Origin: Nitrospinales bacterium
GTDB lineage: Bacteria > Nitrospinota > Nitrospinia > Nitrospinales > VA-1
Length of the DNA: 64,000 nucleotides
Direction of reading: 5' to 3'
Assembly: GCA_965249625.1 (NCBI GenBank)
Contig: OZ252246.1
Span: 1,095,457-1,159,456, forward strand
Below are positions 4,648 to 36,035 of the stretch, one piece after another. The notes under the pieces were generated by a model. The model was given only the letters and a program-made list of their open reading frames with translations. It ran no database searches and was not told the origin of the DNA. The translations under genes were made by a program, and so were the position numbers. Numbering within the stretch: position 1 is the first letter of the stretch; each line of letters opens with the position of its first letter.

Positions 4648-5547
4648 ATGGATCTGTCGGTTGATTTAGGCAGTTTGCGTTTGAATAATCCGGTCATTGC
4701 GGCTTCCGGGACCTTTGGCTATGGTTTGGAGTACCGCTCGCTGGTGAATTTGAATGCTCTGGGTGGGTTTTCCACAAAGGGGCTTTCTTTGAAACCGAAA
4801 ACCGGCAACCCCGTACCGAGGGTGATTGAAACCTCTTCCGGCATGCTCAACGCAATCGGATTGGAGAACATCGGACTGGAGGTTTTCTTATCCGAGAAGC
4901 TCCCGCAACTGGAAAATTTAAACACTCGTATTATCGTTAATTTTTTCGGCGATACCAACCAGGAGTACATAGAGATGGCCCAGGTCTTGTCGGGTGTAGA
5001 ACGGCTGGATGCCCTGGAGATGAATGTTTCCTGTCCCAATGTCGAGAGGGGAGGCTTGCAATTCAGTTCCGACCCGGAAGTTTTGGAAGAAGTGGTCTCA
5101 TCTGTTAGAAAGGTGACGGGAAAGTTTCTTATTGTCAAATTATCTCCCAACGTTACGGATATCACATTGCTGGCCAAGGCCGCAGAAAATGCCGGAGCCG
5201 ATGCTCTGTCGGTGTGCAATACTTTTGTGGGAATGTCGATTGATTTGAAAACCAGAAAGCCCCACTTGGCCAATAGAACGGGTGGGCTTTCGGGACCCGC
5301 CATCAAACCTCTGGCTTTAAATCTGGTGTATCAGACAGTGCGGGCGGTGAAAATTCCTGTTATTGGGATTGGGGGAATAACGAGCGGTGAAGATGCGGTG
5401 GAGTTTTTGCTGGCGGGGGCCAAAGCGGTGCAAATAGGAACCGCCAACTTCATCGACCCAACTTCCACCCTTCAGGTGATTGAAGGAATCCGCCGGTATT
5501 GTTCGTCGAATGGAGTGAAGAATCTTTCCGAATTAGAAATGGGCTGA
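4648..5547 (+). CDS. pyrD: Dihydroorotate dehydrogenase family 1B catalytic subunit
   Basis: NPVIAASGTFG, NVSCPN, KLSPN, GGLSGPAIKP. Confidence 0.96.
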   Translation: MDLSVDLGSLRLNNPVIAASGTFGYGLEYRSLVNLNALGGFSTKGLSLKPKTGNPVPRVIETSSGMLNAIGLENIGLEVFLSEKLPQLENLNTRIIVNFFGDTNQEYIEMAQVLSGVERLDALEMNVSCPNVERGGLQFSSDPEVLEEVVSSVRKVTGKFLIVKLSPNVTDITLLAKAAENAGADALSVCNTFVGMSIDLKTRKPHLANRTGGLSGPAIKPLALNLVYQTVRAVKIPVIGIGGITSGEDAVEFLLAGAKAVQIGTANFIDPTSTLQVIEGIRRYCSSNGVKNLSELEMG

Positions 5548-6693
5548 TTATCCGTTGAGATAAACCCGAGGTACTCGTTTGCCGACATTGCAGAGAATTT
5601 CGTAAGGGATGGTATTTCCCTTGGTCGCAAGCTCCTCCACAGATATCATCTGGTCTTCCTGTTTGCCAAACAGAACGACTTCATCTCCTGCTTGAACATC
5701 CGGAATCCCGGTGACATCGATAACCGTCATATCCATGCAGATATTCCCGATTTGTGGCGCACGTTTGCCTCGGATAAGGACTTCCATTTTGTTCGACAGG
5801 TTGCGGTGGAGTCCGTCTGCATAACCGATGGGCAGAGTGGCGATGAGGCTGTTTTTTTGAGTCGTGAAACTTCCTGAATAGCTGACAGGTTGGCTTTTAG
5901 CAATCGACTTGACCAGAATTATCTGGCTTTTCCATTGCATGACTGGCTGAAACGGAGTCAGTTTTTTTTCCCGGTCGAGGACCGCCTGCAGGGACGGAGA
6001 AGGCAGAGTGCCATAAAGGATGAGCCCCGGGCGGACCATATTGAAACGGCTTTCGGGAGACTTGAACAAGGCGGAAGTGTTGGCGCAATGGAGCAACGGT
6101 GCGGACACACCTCGCTCTTGTGCAATAGCAAGGGCGGTTTGAAATTTTTCAAGCTGTGCCTGGGTGATGGAAAGGTCTTCATTGTCGGCAGAGGAAAAAT
6201 GGGTGGAGATGCCTTCAATTTTCAGATTTGGTAAGCTGCAAATTTGATCCAGAAGTTCGGGCAAATTTTCTGGAGAGACTCCCAGCCGGTTCATTCCGGT
6301 GTCCACCTTGATGTGAACCGATACTGTTTTGTTCTGTTTCCTGGTTTCTTTTGAAAGAGCCTGGGCCAGGGGCAGGGTGCAAAGTATGGTGGCAAGGTCA
6401 TGGCGGACCAAATCTTCCACCTCATCGGGGAAAATGCTACCCAGTATCAGGATAGGGACATTGAGGCCACTTTCCCTGAACTCTATGCCTTCTTCAATCA
6501 CTCCGGCTCCGAGATAGTCTGCGCCGCTGTCAACCGCGACCCGCGCACAAGGTATGGCACCATGACCATAGGCATCGGCTTTGACGACCGCCATGATCCG
6601 GGTTTGAGGGTCTAGATAGTTTCTCAGGTTTTGAAAATTGTGCCGAAAGGCCTGCAGATCAATTTCAGCGCGAGTCGCGCGATGGTGTGCCAT
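5548..6693 (-). CDS. alr: Alanine racemase
   Basis: AVVKADAYGHG, KVDTGMNRLG, GYADG, ICMD. Confidence 0.97.
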   Translation of the reverse strand: MAHHRATRAEIDLQAFRHNFQNLRNYLDPQTRIMAVVKADAYGHGAIPCARVAVDSGADYLGAGVIEEGIEFRESGLNVPILILGSIFPDEVEDLVRHDLATILCTLPLAQALSKETRKQNKTVSVHIKVDTGMNRLGVSPENLPELLDQICSLPNLKIEGISTHFSSADNEDLSITQAQLEKFQTALAIAQERGVSAPLLHCANTSALFKSPESRFNMVRPGLILYGTLPSPSLQAVLDREKKLTPFQPVMQWKSQIILVKSIAKSQPVSYSGSFTTQKNSLIATLPIGYADGLHRNLSNKMEVLIRGKRAPQIGNICMDMTVIDVTGIPDVQAGDEVVLFGKQEDQMISVEELATKGNTIPYEILCNVGKRVPRVYLNG

Positions 6694-6785
6694 GGATAGG
6701 TGTTATCAGAATGCAATACTGGGTTATTATTCGATTAAGGGGTCGGCGAAACATTAATGCGACAGCCAAAGGCGTAGAGCTTGTT

Positions 6786-6905
6786 CCCACCGGGCGTGGC
6801 CCGGCCCCACTCCCGTGGGAGGGAATTAGCATTGTGTTTATTTTGCGGGCAATTATTTTCTCGGCGCAACGAGTTATTGCTAGTTCCCACCGGCCCCGGC
6901 CCGGC
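6786..6905. repeat. Family A element (opposite orientation) plus partial tandem copy
   Basis: GTTCCCACCGG recurs 100 bp apart; body aligns with the reverse complement of 3367-3442. Confidence 0.6.
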
Positions 6906-9023: not shown

Positions 9024-9920
9024 GTGAGAGGTTGCACGGTGAGGTGTTTTCGGTTTGGTTACTATACCCCGGCTGTTTTTATATTGCTTTCATTTTTTCT
9101 TACAGGATGCGGGTCCTGCGACTGTGAAAATAAAGAGAGGCTTTTATCTCCGATAAAAGTTTCCGAGAGGGATCAAAAAGAAATGGTTCTGGTTCCTTCC
9201 GGTGAATTCATTATGGGGACGAATAAGGTTGATACGGAGGGCACACATAAAAAAATTGGCGCGGTTAAACCTCTTTATCTCGATCAGCACCCGGAGAGGA
9301 AACTGTTTCTCGGTCCGTTTTATATGGACCGTTATGAAGTGACCAATGAGGAGTATCAAAGATTTCTAAAAGCCACCCAGTTCACCGATCGGCCTGCCCA
9401 TTGGGTGGACGGAGTTTTTCCTGAAGAGCAGGCTTCACACCCTGTCACCCAAGTCACATGGTGGGAGGGTTGGTCCTATTGCATGTGGGCGCGAAAGCAG
9501 CTTCCAACCGAAGCGCAATGGGAAAAGTCAGCACGGGGTACGAACGGCCTGCCGTATCCCTGGGGGAAGGAGTTTGTTAAAGGCAAGGCGAACTCAGGTA
9601 TTGATGGAGACCGAAAAACAGCACCGGTCACTGCCTGGCCCGAAGATGTTAGCCCTTATAAAATTTATGGCTTGTCCGGCAATGTTATGGAATGGACTCA
9701 GGACTGGTACCTTCCTTACCCAGGAAATCCCAAACCGGACCCCAGGTTTGGCAAAGAACTGAAAGTGTTAAGGGGAAACGGGTTCCAGAAGGCCGGGCAT
9801 TATTTTTTGCCTGCTTACCGCTATGCGTCCGTCCGCACCGAGGCCAGCCCTAATGATTTTTTTGAGAATGTTGGATTCCGGTGCGCGTCGGAAATTATAT
9901 CGGAAAAAGGTGACCACTGA
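9024..9920 (+). CDS. FGE-sulfatase (SUMF1/EgtB/PvdO) domain lipoprotein; start may be slightly downstream
   Basis: LTGC lipobox, GEFIMG, YEVTN, LPTEAQWEKSARG, GNVMEW, GFRC. Confidence 0.88.
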   Translation: MRGCTVRCFRFGYYTPAVFILLSFFLTGCGSCDCENKERLLSPIKVSERDQKEMVLVPSGEFIMGTNKVDTEGTHKKIGAVKPLYLDQHPERKLFLGPFYMDRYEVTNEEYQRFLKATQFTDRPAHWVDGVFPEEQASHPVTQVTWWEGWSYCMWARKQLPTEAQWEKSARGTNGLPYPWGKEFVKGKANSGIDGDRKTAPVTAWPEDVSPYKIYGLSGNVMEWTQDWYLPYPGNPKPDPRFGKELKVLRGNGFQKAGHYFLPAYRYASVRTEASPNDFFENVGFRCASEIISEKGDH

Positions 9921-10019
9921 GAATTTAGGGATCAAATAGGTATCAATGCCCGGAAAGTATCAGCTGGATTAGTAACGAAAAGTGTTTATAGATTTAGCCA
10001 TTTTCGATACTCCAGTGAA

Positions 10020-13540: not shown

Positions 13541-13756
13541 CCCGAGATTACCCCTTCGGGGCATGAAGTTTAATGAAGAGGATATCACATACCCCTGCGG
13601 GGCACGAGAGCTTAGGTGAAACATCACGTCTTCACTGCGTTCAGAATGACAATACTGGGCTATTTTGTCATTCTGAGGAACAAGGTGACGAAGACGTGAT
13701 ATTTTCCCTTAGTTTTCGTGCCCGGAACGGGTAATCCGGGGTTATGCAAAGGTCTC
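13526..13756. mobile_element. 231-bp MITE-like palindromic element with an internal inverted REP pair
   Basis: Ends GAGACCTTTGTATAACCC and GGGTTATGCAAAGGTCTC; nested stems ATCACGTCTTC/GAAGACGTGAT and TCAGAATGACAA/TTGTCATTCTGA. Confidence 0.75.
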
Positions 13757-13819
13757 CCCTTCACAGGGAGGGAGAGGTTTGGCTTTTTCTTTTGATTCAA
13801 TCCTGATCATTTATAGGTT

Positions 13820-14767
13820 ATGCAATATAAAATCCTTCCGGGGCACCTTTATCCCAAAGACAATCGAATAAACCTTTATTATTTTCATAATCTTTTAAAG
13901 GTCATTGGAGATTCTGTTTCCCAACAATTGAAGCAACAGCATAAGATCAGTGTTTCCATTACAGCTGGCATGTGGGGCGGTTCCTATATGGTCGCGCGGG
14001 ACGACGGGCAAGCCAGAACAAATGTTGTGCGCCTGTATTCCATCGTCAACCTACCGCAGAACAGCCCTCTGAACAGCGTGGAAAACTTTGAATGCTTGAT
14101 GGAAATCTATCAGCAAACATTTTGCACTACTTTTAAACGCTATGGATTGAACCTGGTGGCCCCGCGTTGGGGAGAGGCCATCCCCTACTCCAACAAGGAG
14201 CGACCCACCACTGCCCTGCAAATGTGGGACACCAGGAAAAAAGCCAATTTCGTGCGGGCCTTTTTCGTGTGGAATGAAGCGACTTGGGAAGAGTCGATCA
14301 TTTATGACATGATCCGCAATATTAAAGTCCTCAAGGAACTTTTGAATATCAATACCCGCCCTCCCAAAAAAGAAAGTTCGGAGCTAAAGTTTCTGCTGCA
14401 GGATGTGCTCATCACCTACTTCACCCTATACACTGCCTTGACCCCTGATTTCGTTGAACACGCCGAACCCATCATCAAGGAGCTGTTTGAACAGTTTGTT
14501 AAGGGAATGCATTCAGAAGAAGAAATTGAAGAGCAATATTACAAGGTTTATTCAAGTGCTTTGGTTTATGGATTCGAAGAGGCCCTGCAAATCCCTTACG
14601 GAAAAGAAAACCTGGATGTGCAGAATGTGGAAGACTGGCCGGTGGATAAAATCAACTACGTCCCGGATGAATTGAAGGAAAAGCTTGTTCCCGCCTTGCA
14701 GGCTCCCTGGGAAAAATTTCACGCCAACCTGAAAAAACAATCCGGCGCAGAAGTCGCTAACCACTAA
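13820..14767 (+). CDS. Hypothetical protein (315 aa), copy 1
   Basis: Long ORF, no recognised motif, identical to 26024-26971. Confidence 0.8.
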   Translation: MQYKILPGHLYPKDNRINLYYFHNLLKVIGDSVSQQLKQQHKISVSITAGMWGGSYMVARDDGQARTNVVRLYSIVNLPQNSPLNSVENFECLMEIYQQTFCTTFKRYGLNLVAPRWGEAIPYSNKERPTTALQMWDTRKKANFVRAFFVWNEATWEESIIYDMIRNIKVLKELLNINTRPPKKESSELKFLLQDVLITYFTLYTALTPDFVEHAEPIIKELFEQFVKGMHSEEEIEEQYYKVYSSALVYGFEEALQIPYGKENLDVQNVEDWPVDKINYVPDELKEKLVPALQAPWEKFHANLKKQSGAEVANH

Positions 14768-14854
14768 CCCGCATATTGCATGAGAGATTTTAAAATCACT
14801 CCAGCCCCTGTGTGATATTTCTTCATTTACTTCATGAGCCTGTAGCCAAGAAAA

Positions 14855-15073
14855 GGGCCTGTTGCCCAAAGGGTTGCCGTGAAGGGTTGCTGATATTGAT
14901 TTTGTGTATTTCTTACGAATTTTCTTTTCTAAATTGAAATCCCAAAACTCAGATTCATTCCTCCCCAAGTTGAAGCCTGCAAGCAGTTTTTGAATCGTTG
15001 TACGACCTTCAATGCATTACTGCGAATCGATTTTTTCAGGTGTTGGATCATTCGTTTGATGTTTTGAATGGAT
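14855..15073 (-). mobile_element. Duplicated right end of the IS1182-family element
   Basis: IR GGGCCTGTTGCCCAAA at 14855-14870 plus transposase 3' end. Confidence 0.85.
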
Positions 15074-22567: not shown

Positions 22568-23344
22568 ATGATCCAAAAAAGAATGAAGCCATTCGGCTTG
22601 TGGACTGTGCTATTGGCGTTATTGTTCTTGGCCTGCAGTTCAAATGTTGAGGATTGTTTGCAGGATGGAAGTTGTGGTCCCGCCATACAGGTAGCCAGCC
22701 ATGACGGGAGCTTGCCGGTGGATCCTTATGATTCTTTTTGGGATGCAGGGCCTGTTGCGGTCGAGGTGGAACTTGGGCCGCAAATGATCACCAATCCGAA
22801 ATGGCCAAATCCTTCGACGAAGGAGGTTACCGTGCGTGTTGTTAAAAATTCCAGTGGCATAGCTATCATGCTGGAGTGGAGTGATCCAACTCGTGACAGC
22901 AACTTTGGCCACTCGGCGTTATATGTTGATCGGGCGGCGGTGATGTTTCCGGTCGTTGCCGAGAAGGAGGCCCCACTGATCACTATGGGCGAATCGGAAA
23001 AGCCTGTCAATATCTGGCAATGGAAGGCAGTGGGTGGAGAGAGAGGGCAACCTGGAGTGAGGGACAATCCTAATTCCGGGCTCACTTACCAGACCATTGA
23101 GGATTTAAACGCGGAAGGATACAGCACCCTGACCGATCAGAACCAGCAGGATGTAAAAGGCTTCGCGGTGTGGAAAAGTAATAAATGGCGTCTTGTTTTC
23201 CATCGGTCGTTAACCAATGACAACGCCAATGACGTTCAGTTTAAGCAGTCGGTCTTAATGGCCATCGCGGTTTGGAACGGTTCTAACAAAGAATTGAATG
23301 GGCAAAAGGGAATCGCCGGCTGGCTTCTCTTAAAACTCGAATAG
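22568..23344 (+). CDS. Ethylbenzene-dehydrogenase-gamma-like heme b-binding lipoprotein
   Basis: FLAC lipobox; LEWSD, DRAAVMFP, MG, VNIWQWKA, AVWNGS...GQK. Confidence 0.8.
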   Translation: MIQKRMKPFGLWTVLLALLFLACSSNVEDCLQDGSCGPAIQVASHDGSLPVDPYDSFWDAGPVAVEVELGPQMITNPKWPNPSTKEVTVRVVKNSSGIAIMLEWSDPTRDSNFGHSALYVDRAAVMFPVVAEKEAPLITMGESEKPVNIWQWKAVGGERGQPGVRDNPNSGLTYQTIEDLNAEGYSTLTDQNQQDVKGFAVWKSNKWRLVFHRSLTNDNANDVQFKQSVLMAIAVWNGSNKELNGQKGIAGWLLLKLE

Positions 23345-23376
23345 TTTTCCCCTCTTATGATGGCCTTTTGCATAAC

Positions 23377-23417
23377 TTGTCATTGCGAGGAACCGAAGGT
23401 GACGAAGCAATCCAGGT
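23377..23417 (+). repeat. REP-like palindromic repeat, copy 1
   Basis: TTGTCATTGCGAGGAACCGAAGGTGACGAAGCAATCCAGGT. Confidence 0.85.
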
Positions 23418-23457
23418 GTTAAGTTTGCCCTTGCAACGGGTATAACCCGCAACCGAG

Positions 23458-23751
23458 ATGAAAAGAAAACGACCTGCAGTTTATATTATGACCAATAAAC
23501 CCAACGGAATCCTCTATACTGGCGTGACGAGCGATCTGGTAAAACGCGTTTATGACCATAAAAATAGGGCTGTTCCGGACTTTACTAAAACCTATGGCTG
23601 TAAGCGACTGGTCTACTTTGAACTCTGTGATAGCATGGGTAATGCTATTTCCCGAGAGAAACAGATAAAGTCCGGTTCCAGAGATAGGAAAATAGCGTTA
23701 ATTGAAAACATGAATCCGAAGTGGCAGGATCTTTATAGCGAAATTCTATGA
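23458..23751 (+). CDS. Small stand-alone GIY-YIG nuclease
   Basis: AVYIM...LYTGVTSDLVKRVYDH...AISREKQIK...NPKWQDL. Confidence 0.92.
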   Translation: MKRKRPAVYIMTNKPNGILYTGVTSDLVKRVYDHKNRAVPDFTKTYGCKRLVYFELCDSMGNAISREKQIKSGSRDRKIALIENMNPKWQDLYSEIL

Positions 23752-23950
23752 TTGTCGTTGCGAGGAGCCAATGGCGACGAAGCAATCCAGGTTGTGAGGT
23801 TTTGTATAGAGAATCCTCCGATGACGAAGTCGTGATAACCTCATTAGCCTTTGTGCCCTGTAAGAGCAAACCCATAGAACCTGGATCGCCACGCTCGCGA
23901 TGACGTAGCGCAGGTTTATCTTTAGTCTAGATGTCATTGCGAGAAACCGA
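23752..23950. repeat. REP-like cluster: direct copy 23752-23792, inverted copy 23879-23904, truncated copy 23932-23950
   Basis: TTGTCGTTGCGAGGAGCCAATGGCGACGAAGCAATCCAGGT; ACCTGGATCGCCACGCTCGCGATGAC; TGTCATTGCGAGAAACCGA. Confidence 0.85.
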
Positions 23951-24198: not shown

Positions 24199-24687
24199 TT
24201 GGAGGGTCTAATGACTAAAATATTTTGCTTGTTAATGTCGGTAATTGTTTGGGCTGGGTGTGGTGGTGCCACACTATATCAAAAAGACAGTGGCCGAAAC
24301 CTCCTCTCCGATATTCTGGAACTTCAATTTCCCCTCGAGGGAGGTTTTAGCGAAACACAATTATCTGAAAATGTCTGGATTGTTAATTTCAGGGGCAATA
24401 GGTATACAAGAAAGGAGAGAACTGTTGATTTATCCTTATTAAGAAGTGCTGAATTAACTTTGGAGAATGGGTTTAACTATTTTGTGATCGCAGACTCAGG
24501 TACCGATATCCGTACTGAAACGTATGCTACGCATTCAATCATGAATGATATCTCCATACACACCAGTAGAAAACCGACTTCAAGCAATATCGTAATAATG
24601 TTTAAGGAAAAACCTGAAAATACTCCCAATGCTTTTGATGCTAAATTTATTATTAAATCTATTAAGGGGAAGTACGATATCAAATAA
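24199..24687 (+). CDS. Putative lipoprotein (CC0125/CC1285-like); likely start 24210
   Basis: WAGC lipobox; FRGNRYT...LLRSAELTLENGFNYF; AT-rich. Confidence 0.7.
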   Translation: MEGLMTKIFCLLMSVIVWAGCGGATLYQKDSGRNLLSDILELQFPLEGGFSETQLSENVWIVNFRGNRYTRKERTVDLSLLRSAELTLENGFNYFVIADSGTDIRTETYATHSIMNDISIHTSRKPTSSNIVIMFKEKPENTPNAFDAKFIIKSIKGKYDIK

Positions 24688-24748
24688 ATAAAGGGGTCTA
24701 CCCCTCCGGGGCACGAATTTTTCGGAGGGGGATATCACGAAGTCTTTT

Positions 24749-25936
24749 GGGCCTGTTGCCCAAACCTTTTGATGGGAGCGTGGGTTTATAAGGATTATAA
24801 TTTATCCAGCTGGTTTTTGTTGTTCTACAGTTTTAATCTTTTTTTCCGGGAGTCCTTCCCATGATGAAACGCGAAACCCCGTGGCAGAGCGTATTCTTTA
24901 ACTATGCCGTGAATCTTGAAGATCGGATACCTCGAGATCACGAGTTGCGGCAAGTTTCTTCCGTTTTGAACCTGGATTTTATGTATGAACAAGTAAAGGA
25001 TAAGTACGGCCACAATGGAAACGAATCGGTTCCGCCTCCGGTGATTCTAAAACTGATGTTGCTGCTCATCTTTTACAACGTTCGTTCCGAACGTGAGTTG
25101 ATGCGTACGCTTCCGTACCGGATGGATTGGCTCTGGTTTCTGGGTTATGGTCTGGACACTGTGATTCCTAATCACAGCGTATTATCGAAGGCGCGTTTCA
25201 GATGAGGTGAATCAGTTTTTAAAGAGTTGTTCGAGCGAATCGTGCACCAATGTGTAGAGTTGGGTTTGGTGGATGGGAAGAAATTGTTCATGGACTCAAG
25301 CCTTGTCGATGCGAACGCTTCCCGGGAATCGGTGGTCGACATGCATTCACTCAGCGCATTTACATTCGACCCTGAAAGCGATACCTATATCTGCCCGGCG
25401 GGCAAACGCTTGCGGCTGAAGACCCGCCGGTTAAAAGAGCAGCGTATGTATTACGCCGCCAGAGCAGACGACTGTAATGCCTGCGAACTAAAATCCCAAT
25501 GCACACGTAGTGCAACCGGACGCACGATCCAACGGTATGATCGTCAGGACGACCTCGAAGAAATGCGCGCAATGGCAAAGACCCCAAAAGGAAAACAAGA
25601 CCTGAAAACGAGACAGCATCTTATGGAACGGTCATTCGCATATTCAGTGCCCTTGGGATTCAAAAGGGCGCGGTGGCGAAGATTATGGCGGGTCCAGATT
25701 CAAGAATACCTGACTGCATCCATTCAAAACATCAAACGAATGATCCAACACCTGAAAAAATCGATTCGCAGTAATGCATTGAAGGTCGTACAACGATTCA
25801 AAAACTGCTTGCAGGCTTCAACTTGGGGAGGAATGAATCTGAGTTTTGGGATTTCAATTTAGAAAAGAAAATTCGTAAGAAATACACAAAATCAATATCA
25901 GCAACCCTTCACGGCAACCCTTTGGGCAACAGGCCC
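24749..25936 (+). mobile_element. Defective IS1182-family insertion sequence (1188 bp)
   Basis: Perfect 16-bp IRs GGGCCTGTTGCCCAAA / TTTGGGCAACAGGCCC, TTTT on both flanks. Confidence 0.9.
24861..25862 (+). pseudogene. IS1182-family transposase pseudogene
   Basis: RSERELM, PNHSVLS, DSSLVDANAS, YICPAG, ERSFA; in-frame TGA at 25203-25205 and apparent internal deletion. Confidence 0.88.
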
Positions 25937-27201
25937 TTTTCTTGGCTACAGGCTCATGAAGTAAATGAAGAAATATCACACAGGGGCTGGAGTGATTTTA
26001 AAATCTCTCATGCAATATGCGGGTTAGTGGTTAGCGACTTCTGCGCCGGATTGTTTTTTCAGGTTGGCGTGAAATTTTTCCCAGGGAGCCTGCAAGGCGG
26101 GAACAAGCTTTTCCTTCAATTCATCCGGGACGTAGTTGATTTTATCCACCGGCCAGTCTTCCACATTCTGCACATCCAGGTTTTCTTTTCCGTAAGGGAT
26201 TTGCAGGGCCTCTTCGAATCCATAAACCAAAGCACTTGAATAAACCTTGTAATATTGCTCTTCAATTTCTTCTTCTGAATGCATTCCCTTAACAAACTGT
26301 TCAAACAGCTCCTTGATGATGGGTTCGGCGTGTTCAACGAAATCAGGGGTCAAGGCAGTGTATAGGGTGAAGTAGGTGATGAGCACATCCTGCAGCAGAA
26401 ACTTTAGCTCCGAACTTTCTTTTTTGGGAGGGCGGGTATTGATATTCAAAAGTTCCTTGAGGACTTTAATATTGCGGATCATGTCATAAATGATCGACTC
26501 TTCCCAAGTCGCTTCATTCCACACGAAAAAGGCCCGCACGAAATTGGCTTTTTTCCTGGTGTCCCACATTTGCAGGGCAGTGGTGGGTCGCTCCTTGTTG
26601 GAGTAGGGGATGGCCTCTCCCCAACGCGGGGCCACCAGGTTCAATCCATAGCGTTTAAAAGTAGTGCAAAATGTTTGCTGATAGATTTCCATCAAGCATT
26701 CAAAGTTTTCCACGCTGTTCAGAGGGCTGTTCTGCGGTAGGTTGACGATGGAATACAGGCGCACAACATTTGTTCTGGCTTGCCCGTCGTCCCGCGCGAC
26801 CATATAGGAACCGCCCCACATGCCAGCTGTAATGGAAACACTGATCTTATGCTGTTGCTTCAATTGTTGGGAAACAGAATCTCCAATGACCTTTAAAAGA
26901 TTATGAAAATAATAAAGGTTTATTCGATTGTCTTTGGGATAAAGGTGCCCCGGAAGGATTTTATATTGCATAACCTATAAATGATCAGGATTGAATCAAA
27001 AGAAAAAGCCAAACCTCTCCCTCCCTGTGAAGGGGAGACCTTTGCATAACCCCGGATTACCCGTTCCGGGCACGAAAACTAAGGGAAAATATCACGTCTT
27101 CGTCACCTTGTTCCTCAGAATGACAAAATAGCCCAGTATTGTCATTCTGAACGCAGTGAAGACGTGATGTTTCACCTAAGCTCTCGTGCCCCGCAGGGGT
27201 A
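25718..27201. repeat. Right arm of the 1484-bp inverted duplication
   Basis: Reverse complement of 13590-15073. Confidence 0.97.
26024..26971 (-). CDS. Hypothetical protein (315 aa), copy 2
   Basis: Translation identical to 13820-14767. Confidence 0.8.
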   Translation of the reverse strand: MQYKILPGHLYPKDNRINLYYFHNLLKVIGDSVSQQLKQQHKISVSITAGMWGGSYMVARDDGQARTNVVRLYSIVNLPQNSPLNSVENFECLMEIYQQTFCTTFKRYGLNLVAPRWGEAIPYSNKERPTTALQMWDTRKKANFVRAFFVWNEATWEESIIYDMIRNIKVLKELLNINTRPPKKESSELKFLLQDVLITYFTLYTALTPDFVEHAEPIIKELFEQFVKGMHSEEEIEEQYYKVYSSALVYGFEEALQIPYGKENLDVQNVEDWPVDKINYVPDELKEKLVPALQAPWEKFHANLKKQSGAEVANH

Positions 27202-27207
27202 ATCTCG
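27035..27207. mobile_element. Second, one-end-truncated copy of the MITE-like element
   Basis: GAGACCTTTGCATAAC...CCCCGCAGGGGTAATCTCG. Confidence 0.7.
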
Positions 27208-34622: not shown

Positions 34623-36035
34623 CTAAAGGATGTAACGGCTCAGGTCTTCGTCTTGAATAATGTCTCTCAGTTTTTCTTGGATATATCTGGCATCAATCGT
34701 TATATTTTTTTCTTCCATATCAGGAGCATTGAAAGAGATTTCTTCGAGAAACTTTTCCATGATGGTTTGCAGTCGCCGGGCACCGATATTTTCCGTACGC
34801 TGGTTAACCAGGGCGGACATTTCAGCAATCTGGTCGATGGCATCTTCCAGAAAACTCAGGTTGACCTGTTCCGTTTTCAGCAAGGCGGTGTATTGCTTGA
34901 CCAAAGCATTGTCTGGCTCGGTGAGAATGCGGACGAAATCATTTTTAGTCAGGGAATCCAGTTCAACACGGATAGGAAAACGGCCCTGAAATTCCGGGAT
35001 CAGGTCCGACGGCTTGGCGGAGTGAAACGCTCCCGCCGCAATGAAAAGGATGTGGTCGGTTTTCACGATGCCGTACTTGGTGTTCACCGATGAGCCTTCA
35101 ACGATAGGCAGAAGGTCACGTTGTACCCCTTCGCGGGAGACATCGGGCCCACTGGTTCCACCTGACTGGCGGCCGATTATTTTGTCTACTTCATCGATGA
35201 AGATGATTCCGTTTTGCTCGACACGCTTTAAGGTTTCTTGCATCACTATGTCCTGGTCGAGCAATTTTTCCGCTTCTTCCTGACAAAGAACCTTGAACGC
35301 ATCCGGAACCTTCAATTTTTTGTTTTTGGTTTTCTGCGGCATGAGGGAGCCGAGCATGTCCTTAATGTTATTGCCCATCTCCTCCATTCCGACTCCGGAG
35401 TTCAGGTCAATGATTGAAGGCGTTTTATCCCGCACCTGGATTTCCACTTCGCGGTCATCAAGCTTGCCTTCTTTTAGCATCTGGGCAAACTTTTCACGAG
35501 TTTGCTCGTAATGCAGTTTTCCGTTTGTGTCGAGATTAAAGCCGGGTTTCCCCTGTTGTCCTGCGGGTGGAGGGAGAAGCAAATCCAGAAGCCTTTCTAT
35601 AGCCTGCTCGCGGGCCTGTTCGCGAAAGGTGGTTTCCATTTCTTCTTTAACCATATTTTTTGACAATTCCACCAGATCCCGGACCATGGACTCGACATCG
35701 CGCCCGACATAACCCACCTCGGTGTATTTGGAAGCCTCGACTTTGATGAAAGGAGACTTGGAAAGCTTTGCCAGCCGCCGGGCGATTTCTGTCTTGCCCA
35801 CTCCCGTCGGGCCGATCATGAGAATATTTTTGGGTCCTACCTCATCGCGAAGAGAGTCAGGAAGCTGTAACCGACGCCAGCGATTGCGCAGGGCGATGCC
35901 CACCGCCCGCTTGGCATTGGTTTGCCCGACGATAAACTTGTCCAGTTCCGCAACAATTTGTTTTGGAGTCAATGACGCCATGAACGTATCGCTAGTTTTC
36001 TGGATTGTGGGTTCGGTTATTGCTGCATCATTCAT
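34623..36035 (-). CDS. hslU: HslU ATPase
   Basis: [35 protein letters not shown]. Confidence 0.97.

Follow-up and report, generated by a model that had tools for sequence, protein, structure and literature searches.

What is a small GIY-YIG nuclease doing between two copies of a palindromic repeat? The question is raised by a locus in a 64-kb window (the whole stretch of 64,000 nucleotides analysed here, from contig OZ252246.1 of a Nitrospinales bacterium), where an open reading frame (ORF) of 97 aa lies between two 41-bp direct copies of a hairpin repeat, which we call an arm, followed by an inverted and a truncated fourth copy (Table 1). This layout had been described in a sequence-only reading of the window, and it held up on re-analysis down to the inner hairpins, which vary between the two long copies yet pair in both. 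The same reading had proposed that the nuclease could be the cognate enzyme of the repeats, a proposal that is now strongly supported by the enrichment of arms at 80 loci and by the biochemistry of homologues; its remark that no characterised mechanism was known to it is out of date, as Chenal et al. reported the Ssn/NTS-SRM system in March 2025 (Nat Commun, PMC11893778). In our view, the ORF very probably encodes an Ssn-family endonuclease for single-stranded DNA (ssDNA), with the flanking repeats being its cognate Ssn-related motifs (SRMs), a variant class of the CGTC-tagged superfamily of palindromic repeats. The pairing of enzyme and repeat itself is not new, having been described in 2025 as the Ssn family. 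What would otherwise be listed as a small ‘GIY-YIG hypothetical’ next to repeats can be named in a Nitrospina-like lineage of nitrite oxidisers: an Ssn-type ssDNA endonuclease with its recognition hairpins.

The nuclease and its arms across relatives

The sole Pfam domain of the 97-aa protein is PF01541 (GIY-YIG, E 7e-15, residues 7–78), and its AlphaFold2 model (mean pLDDT 92) is one compact, plain GIY-YIG fold, best matched by the UPF0213 protein BH0048, the N-terminal domain of UvrC, and Slx1. Y9, Y20, and E67 are spaced by 11 and 47 residues, with 30 residues following the Glu; Y20 and E67 do not vary among 29 homologues, and Y9 reaches a conservation of at least 90%. The Pfam scan gave no Y1_Tnp match to the protein, the NCBIfam scan returned no specific model (a weak match to TIGR01453 was the only one), and a sequence search of the PDB yielded 1zg2 (E 0.003) as its only hit and no Ssn structure. 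Because PADLOC and PHROGs had no match for the nuclease, we filed it neither under defence nor under phage genes. Homologues of similar length number at least 8000, and the best 120 are 61–100% identical, the first of these being the window's own protein; Neisseria or Wolbachia proteins were not among the best 120 matches in either of two homologue searches, the second of which used a Rickettsia tamurae protein as query. Many close homologues lie on very short contigs of ~0.5–3 kb, as expected if gene and repeats break metagenome assemblies.

A scan of one genome per species gave at least 601 pattern matches, and 600 of the 601 listed encode a relative of the protein. Our comparison set consists of the best 80 loci out of at least 600, each with up to 6 kb on either side (786 kb in total), from Nitrospinota, many Pseudomonadota, Bdellovibrionota, Melainabacteria, Patescibacteria, Omnitrophota, Spirochaetota, Bacteroidota, and others. 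Arms were counted with a strict pattern (TC[ATG]TxGCGA, 3–60 nt, GCx'AT[CT], where x and x' are complementary), and loci with less than 150 nt of sequence on a side were left out of the flank counts, leaving denominators of 78, 77, and 75. The 80 loci contain 335 arms versus 0–3 per block-shuffled set (20 shuffles); it is these data from relatives, and not the 64-kb window alone, that show the association to go beyond chance. An arm lies within 150 nt upstream of the gene at 65 of 78 loci and within 150 nt downstream at 64 of 77; both sides carry one at 57 of 75 loci, neither side at 6 of 75. Arms are 77 times as dense within 150 nt of the gene (8.2 per kb) as at distances above 1 kb (0.107 per kb; binomial p nominally 6e-219, a value that overstates independence). 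Enrichment of the repeats beside homologues, one of the checks proposed in the sequence-only reading, was thus borne out: gene and arm sites persist together across phyla.

In the published system, according to the main text of PMC11893778, SsnA of N. meningitidis (CAX49033.1) is a single-domain GIY-YIG protein of 94 aa (CDD cd10448) that binds its motif exclusively in ssDNA and makes its cut upstream, at a distance of a few nucleotides (~3 nt 5'). It is inactive on double-stranded DNA (dsDNA), on RNA, and on the complementary strand, and it neither binds nor cuts RNA; cutting is lost in the mutants Y6A, Y17A, and E64A. Binding depends most on the C that directly follows the palindrome, whereas cutting depends most on the three bases that precede it. 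The longer oriented motif, NTS (CGTCATTCCCGCGMAVGCGGGAATCYRG), which was defined from the dRS3 repeat and flanks the ssnA gene of N. meningitidis, contains about half of the dRS3 copies. Similar motifs (SRMs) flank homologues of ssnA across bacteria, four purified SsnA proteins (those of N. meningitidis, N. elongata, N. wadsworthii, and Wolbachia) each cut ssDNA beside their own flanking repeat, and an SsnA homologue is present in 137 of the 169 genomes whose SRMs number more than 200. Deletion of ssnA raised transformation by NTS-bearing DNA about 5-fold, and the role put forward for N. meningitidis is that the enzyme limits integration of repeat-bearing transforming ssDNA (PMC11893778).

The locus in the window agrees with this description in several respects. 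Its product, like SsnA, is a single-domain GIY-YIG protein of ~95 aa, both lying below the 150 aa set for the family, and the spacing of Y9/Y20/E67 as well as the C-terminal length match those around Y6/Y17/E64, the residues being equated by spacing and not by alignment. Oriented hairpin repeats flank the gene within 500 bp on both sides, at distances of 40 nt and 0 nt in the window, and have in common with the published motifs a (C/T)GTC head, a stem that begins with ATT and ends with AAT, and a C-rich tail (CYRG or CCAG). The family spans many phyla in both data sets, and the 80 loci include Rickettsia and Sphingomonas, which the paper names among the repeat-rich genera. The differences concern the stem interior (ATTGC, a GA-rich internal loop, and a variable inner hairpin in the window versus ATTCCCGCG-loop-GCGGGAAT), the gene-proximal arms, which are direct and not inverted, and the Nitrospina-like host, which belongs to a group absent from the main text of PMC11893778. 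By analogy with SsnA, each arm would fold as a hairpin once its strand becomes single-stranded, and the protein would read the stem sequence together with the C after the palindrome. The cut would then fall a few nucleotides 5' of the (C/T)GTC head and on that strand only, with dsDNA and RNA expected not to serve as substrates.

The assignment was made by description, residue spacing, and repeats, and a number of observations weigh against it. The published SRM string, HGTCWYN(0-2)YYVSBRHN(0-5)WNVSBRGN(0-2)RNCYNB (PMC11893778), has no exact match in the window, and none of its 11 one-mismatch matches there lies at the locus; across the 80 loci, overlap with an arm is seen for none of its 15 exact matches and for 22 of the 149 that have one mismatch. 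The string fails because the stem interior TTGCGAG breaks its YY positions, whereas head, stem ends, and tail agree; as it matches no copy in the window, the repeat class lies outside the authors' operational motif. Direct arms on both sides, as present in the window, are a minority type (5 of 80 loci). Within the 64-kb window, no convincing arm was found outside the locus, a strict-pattern match at 35842 being probably due to chance. Finally, single arms are no stabler than shuffled sequences under nearest-neighbour DNA energies (z +0.58, -1.59, and +0.06 for copies 1–3). The heptamer GCGNAGC is frequent in short-form arms, and we take it to be the unusually stable GNA DNA mini-hairpin, which would explain the lack of excess stability under standard energies.

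Structure and arrangement of the arms

A full arm reads, in order, (T)GTC head, ATTGC, GAGGA, a small variable hairpin, GACGAA, GCAAT, and CCAGG tail, so that in the long form a 5-bp outer stem is followed by a purine-rich internal loop (GAGGA/GACGAA). Common to the window and its relatives is a (C/T)GTC-ATTGC...GCAAT-CC hairpin, with length peaks at 25 nt (96 arms) and 31 nt (64 arms). Copies 1 and 2 differ at 5 positions within 41 nt (counted by eye), and in a repeat search the match between them reaches 50 nt, with 82% identity. Copies 2 and 3 together constitute a tails-inward dimer, most of which folds as one long hairpin (Table 1).

Table 1. Positions of the repeat copies, the nuclease gene and further elements in the 64-kb window
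Feature	Position	Strand	Description
ssn-like gene, single-domain GIY-YIG nuclease	23458-23751	+	97 aa ORF; TGA stop at 23749-23751 included; only gene copy in the window
Copy 1, long-form arm	23377-23417	+	TGTC head, ATTGC/GCAAT outer stem, ACC-GAA-GGT inner hairpin, CCAGG tail; 3' end 40 nt before ATG
Copy 2, long-form arm, direct orientation	23752-23792	+	Starts at first base after stop codon; inner hairpin GCC-AAT-GGC; first outer-stem pair G-T instead of A-T
Copy 3, short-form inverted arm	23879-23904	-	Minus strand reads GTCATCGCGAG-CGTG-GCGATCC
Copy 4, truncated	23932-23950	+	Head and 5' half only, without GAAGCAATCC 3' half; 95% identical to copy 1 over 19 nt
Tails-inward dimer of copies 2 and 3	23752-23904		23755-23904 (150 nt) folds as one long hairpin, z -2.3
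Haem subunit gene, ethylbenzene-dehydrogenase type	22568-23344		Flanks the ssn locus
Lipoprotein gene	24199-24687		Flanks the ssn locus
Broken IS1182-type transposase	24861-25862		DUF772 ORF 24861-25205; DDE_Tnp_1_6 ORF 25227-25862
Perfect inverted repeat, 1484 nt	13590-15073 and 25718-27201		100% complementary; 315-aa ORF in each copy (13820-14767)
TACCCCTCCGGGGCACGA	24699-24716		94% complementary to 27184-27201
MITE-like palindromic element	13620-13700 and 27055-27204		47-nt arms, 81% complementary
TTGTCATTCTGAGGAAC...GGTGACGAAG, related to the arm	13665	+
TTGTCATTCTGAGGAAC...GGTGACGAAG, related to the arm	27110	-
CCCC..GGGGCA hairpins	13541-13602		Like those of the IS1182-type element

When complementarity was not demanded by the search, the variable outer-stem position was complementary in 308 of 321 arms (T:A 263, C:G 34, G:C 10, A:T 1). 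We further subjected 64 aligned 31-nt arms to a two-helix test (outer pairs 5-32 to 9-28, inner pairs 12-24 to 16-20), which gave 85.2% standard pairs versus 75.1% in shuffles and 52 cells with double-sided changes versus 9.3, none of 500 shuffles reaching as high; all slid controls of the model paired far more poorly, and the two middle inner pairs were either Watson-Crick or G.A/A.G. In this test, the search pattern determined outer pairs 6-31, 8-29, and 9-28 and required 7-30 to be complementary, while 5-32 and the inner pairs were free; because the pattern imposed those pairs, outer-stem covariation among the 64 arms is not independent evidence, in contrast to the count of 321 arms made without that requirement. 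Covariation in these alignments supports a predicted fold of the arm as a two-helix hairpin, with a 5-bp outer stem, an internal loop, and a variable inner hairpin.

Two further ideas about the arms were not upheld. The sequence-only reading had suggested testing whether repeat sequence co-varies with protein phylogeny, and no such co-variation was detected; the outer-stem variant (ATT, ATC, ATG, and others) requires 15 changes on the protein tree versus 14–15 in ten of 200 shuffles, the tree being poorly resolved (98 columns, 45 of 78 inner branches open). A suspected short-left, long-right asymmetry of gene-less dimers did not hold up either, the 69 dimers falling into 28 S/L, 20 L/L, 14 L/S, and 7 S/S.

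The nearest upstream and downstream arms have the orientation (+,-), with heads pointing outward, at 30 of the 80 loci, (-,+) at 13, (-,-) at 9, and (+,+), the arrangement of the window, at 5; at 16 loci the nearest arm is on one side only, and 7 have no arm on either side. The upstream and downstream arms of the same gene are slightly more alike in their inner part than arms of different loci (mean identity 0.65 versus 0.55, 30 loci), a slight excess only. Besides gene-flanking arms, the 80 loci contain the above-mentioned gene-less, tails-inward inverted dimers with a median spacer of 26 nt, and arms more than 1 kb away from the gene were seen at 27 loci, which therefore points to dispersed repeats in those genomes.

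At 2 of the 80 loci, from different phyla, the motif CAACGAATTACGYAACC was noticed just outside the arm-gene-arm unit. A Nitrospina metagenome-assembled genome (MAG; locus L001) has it as a direct pair (23-39 and 468-484) that abuts arms without heads, and a gammaproteobacterial MAG (L004) as an inverted pair (5845-5861 and 6351-6367); the window does not contain it at up to 3 mismatches.

Possible mobility of the unit, and the surrounding window

Gene and arms together could constitute an autonomous mobile element of ~385 bp, a size below that of any autonomous insertion sequence known to us, for which Ssn makes the end cuts and of which the gene-less dimers are non-autonomous derivatives, comparable to miniature inverted-repeat transposable elements (MITEs) or to REPINs, the paired form of repetitive extragenic palindromic (REP) sequences; under this reading, the copy in the window would represent an old insertion that has partly decayed. 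We regard this as a possibility worth weighing, albeit a doubtful one. Arms with outward-pointing heads resemble terminal inverted repeats at the 30 loci that show them, the window not being among these, and the presence of gene-less dimers and of distant arms at the same set of loci would be in line with derivatives of such an element. A Micavibrio MAG (L056) harbours two arm-gene-arm copies that are 99.5% identical over 385 bp (5942-6326 and 9597-9981) within unrelated flanks, and their ends lie ~3 nt outside the TGTC heads, which is also the distance 5' of the motif at which SsnA cuts (PMC11893778). Similarity between the window and L001 (71%) is confined to 23382-23789, that is, to the arm-gene-arm unit, although L001 offers only 45 nt upstream of the arm and the two genomes are distant; also, the number of arms differs between syntenic loci (10 at L003, 2 at L016).

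Considerations of mechanism speak against such an element. GIY-YIG nucleases are hydrolytic, and we know of no strand-transfer or joining activity among them; also, two arms would mean cuts on opposite strands, each of which needs to be single-stranded. The L056 copies have no visible target-site duplication, and their pattern could equally well have been made by arm-templated gene conversion. No empty site was found among the 80 loci, where no scan was aimed at empty sites. Moreover, the gene is syntenic on both flanks at 5 Sphingomonadales loci, as it is in two other pairs. The protein tree broadly follows taxonomy (the window protein groups with the Nitrospina MAG, SH-aLRT 98), and DNA identity within the gene does not rise above ~77% for any pair of the 80 loci, so that no recent transfer between genomes is seen. 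The window itself has one gene copy and no other convincing arms, and the stem variant does not track the protein tree. Tentatively, and with the odds rather against it, gene-less dimers, which are the CGTC-tagged REPs discussed below, might have spread by a new pathway initiated by the GIY-YIG enzyme and completed by host repair, or by arm-templated gene conversion, with the ends of the unit set by Ssn cuts.

In the lineage of the window, the unit looks old and resident rather than recently inserted, given the single gene copy, the lack of a convincing arm outside the locus, and the direct arrangement of arms 1 and 2 that is common to the window and L001; the latter has an arm at the position of copy 2 in the same orientation, and its arm heads have decayed to CACA and CGTT. 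At the Sphingomonadales loci L006, L028, L034, L044, and L067, the gene has the same neighbours on both sides while number and orientation of the flanking arms differ, which suggests vertical inheritance of the gene along with local turnover of the repeats.

Another scenario, to which we would assign a low probability, has the repeats pre-existing as a host or independent REP family whose dimer spacers were invaded by a homing-type GIY-YIG gene via break-induced repair. GIY-YIG homing endonucleases are a known class, the model of the window protein weakly matches I-TevI, the gene takes the place of the 26-nt spacer of gene-less dimers at 30 of 80 loci, and the duplicated unit of L056 stops at the arm heads. 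However, classical homing needs a double-strand break and the characterised SsnA is inactive on dsDNA (PMC11893778); the window protein has no DNA-binding extension, and the arms are oriented (-,+) at 13 and directly at 14 of the 80 loci. Least probable is that the repeats act as RNA (terminators, stabilisers, or small RNAs) that regulates or guides the nuclease, the sequence-only reading having raised structured RNAs that act with it: copy 2 does start directly after the stop codon, its dimer with copy 3 can form one long hairpin, and REP-type repeats are often transcribed (PMC3733652), but Rfam had no match at gathering scores in the whole window and only a chance-level snoRNA match at E up to 10 at the locus, the gene strand has no terminator-like T tract after the arms, both strands carry arms around the genes of the 80 loci, and the characterised SsnA neither binds nor cuts motif RNA (PMC11893778).

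With an Ssn-family nuclease and its cognate arms remaining the preferred reading, some single loci deserve mention. L058 contains a perfect tandem duplication of a 417-bp block of gene plus arm (5995-6411 and 6421-6837, period 426 nt). Two diverged paralogues lie 3.7 kb apart at L020 (2312-2581 and 6001-6282), with ~70% DNA identity over 153 nt. The ssn homologues of L037 (WOR-3 MAG, 5323-5601) and L065 (Microcoleaceae MAG, 637-906) have one in-frame stop each and are likely pseudogenes or sequencing errors.

In the window, the ssn locus is flanked by the haem subunit and lipoprotein genes, with dnaE upstream and the broken IS1182-type transposase downstream (Table 1). The 1484-nt inverted repeat brackets 10.6 kb with transporter genes, dnaE, an M16 peptidase gene, the haem-subunit gene, and the ssn locus; the 315-aa ORF present in each of its copies has no Pfam, PADLOC, or PHROG match. 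This repeat could be the border of an invertible segment, an insertion sequence (IS)-derived duplication, or an assembly artefact. The arms formed by TACCCCTCCGGGGCACGA and its counterpart at 27184-27201 enclose the split transposase and the 315-aa ORF, and 24699-27201 looks like an IS1182-type element of ~2.5 kb whose transposase is broken and which carries a passenger gene.

The ‘MITE-like element’ of the sequence-only reading sits within the 1484-nt inverted repeat. At its centre is a heads-inward arm-like pair, GTCATTCTGA(G/A)...GAAGACG, which has the head and a GAGGAAC...GGTGACGAAG core in common with copy 1 and is devoid of the ATTGC/GCAAT stem and the CC tail. The relative of the repeat that had been reported at 13665 is real and has an inverted counterpart at 27110, with TTGTCATTCTGAGGAAC matching 5 times versus 0.21 expected and GGTGACGAAG 3 times versus 0.08 expected; as judged from these letters, the arm-like pair may be a diverged derivative of the Ssn repeat. 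A resemblance of GCATAAC, directly before copy 1, to the end of the element had been noted as well. It exists, yet is weaker than the former: CTTTGCATAAC has 6 matches at up to one mismatch versus 1.5 expected.

Relation to known systems

Palindromic repeats of the present kind have an earlier history. Di Nocera et al. (BMC Genomics 2013, PMC3733652) described, as laid out in their main text, ‘CGTC-tagged’ repeats with a CGTC or TGTC head, A-T pairs at the start of the stem, and a 3-nt CCA-type tail, occurring mostly as inverted dimers with spacers of 20–100 bp, often as heterodimers, mainly in alphaproteobacteria and also in other phyla. The superfamily takes in Neisseria dRS3 (the CGTC-1 family) as well as Rickettsia RPE-4 and RPE-6; the repeats are said there to ‘apparently lack a dedicated transposase’, and ‘GIY’ is absent from that main text. 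PMC3733652 is not cited in PMC11893778. Our literature searches for GIY-YIG together with REP, MITE, or palindromic repeats retrieved nothing relevant outside the Ssn paper, searches with the motif letters retrieved unrelated primers only, and no paper later than PMC11893778 was found on SsnA as a GIY-YIG enzyme. Ssn repeats and the CGTC-tagged REP superfamily of 2013 appear to be the same thing, a link that gives this ‘orphan’ superfamily its missing enzyme. The window repeats conform to it in their TGTC tag, the ATTGC...GCAAT stem starting with A-T, the CCAGG tail, and the dimer of copies 2 and 3, but they deviate in having a 5-bp outer stem, an internal loop, and a second helix instead of a perfect 8–9 bp stem with a 4–5 nt loop. 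The ATTGCGAG class is likely one of the four families of PMC3733652, as far as its text descriptions, rather than the consensus in its Figure 2, allow comparison.

What we consider new is, first, the ATTGCGAG repeat class outside the printed SRM string, although the figures or Supplementary Data 3–5 of PMC11893778 may already list this class or Nitrospinota. In its 25-nt and 31-nt forms, the ATTGCGAG...GCAAT class is the commonest around the homologues of the best 80 loci and is missed by the published string, so that published counts of repeat-bearing genomes may be underestimates. New are also the covariation support for a two-helix fold, the explicit connection to the ‘orphan’ CGTC repeats of 2013, and the sharp-ended duplication of a unit within one Micavibrio genome, the latter providing a concrete starting point on unit mobility. 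Beyond this, every new pair of Ssn enzyme and hairpin is a candidate site-specific reagent for cutting ssDNA.

Two other known systems invite comparison. The UPF0213 protein BH0048 of B. halodurans (PDB 1zg2) has the same fold and a similar size (fold E 9e-4, TM 0.57), but it is only 28% identical to the window protein, and we are aware of no repeat association for the small GIY-YIG proteins of UPF0213. The other is the REPtron, in which a REP-associated tyrosine transposase (RAYT) goes together with GTAG-headed REPs and REPINs. In the Ssn kind as in the REPtron, one small nuclease gene is flanked by hairpin repeats that are recognised as ssDNA, and inverted repeat dimers are dispersed in the genome. 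Both also have a gene that often exists as a single copy and is inherited vertically, while the repeats turn over locally. The enzymes are unrelated in fold and chemistry, that of the window being a hydrolytic GIY-YIG nuclease whereas RAYTs are Y1 enzymes of the HUH type that pass through a covalent tyrosine intermediate and can rejoin DNA, and the repeat head is CGTC in the Ssn kind versus GTAG. The Discussion of PMC11893778 likewise compares NTS-ssnA-NTS to an insertion sequence and draws the parallel to RAYT/REP ‘domestication’. Because gene and sites persist together across phyla, our findings fit an enzyme-plus-repeat unit of the RAYT/REP kind, be it domesticated or still selfish.

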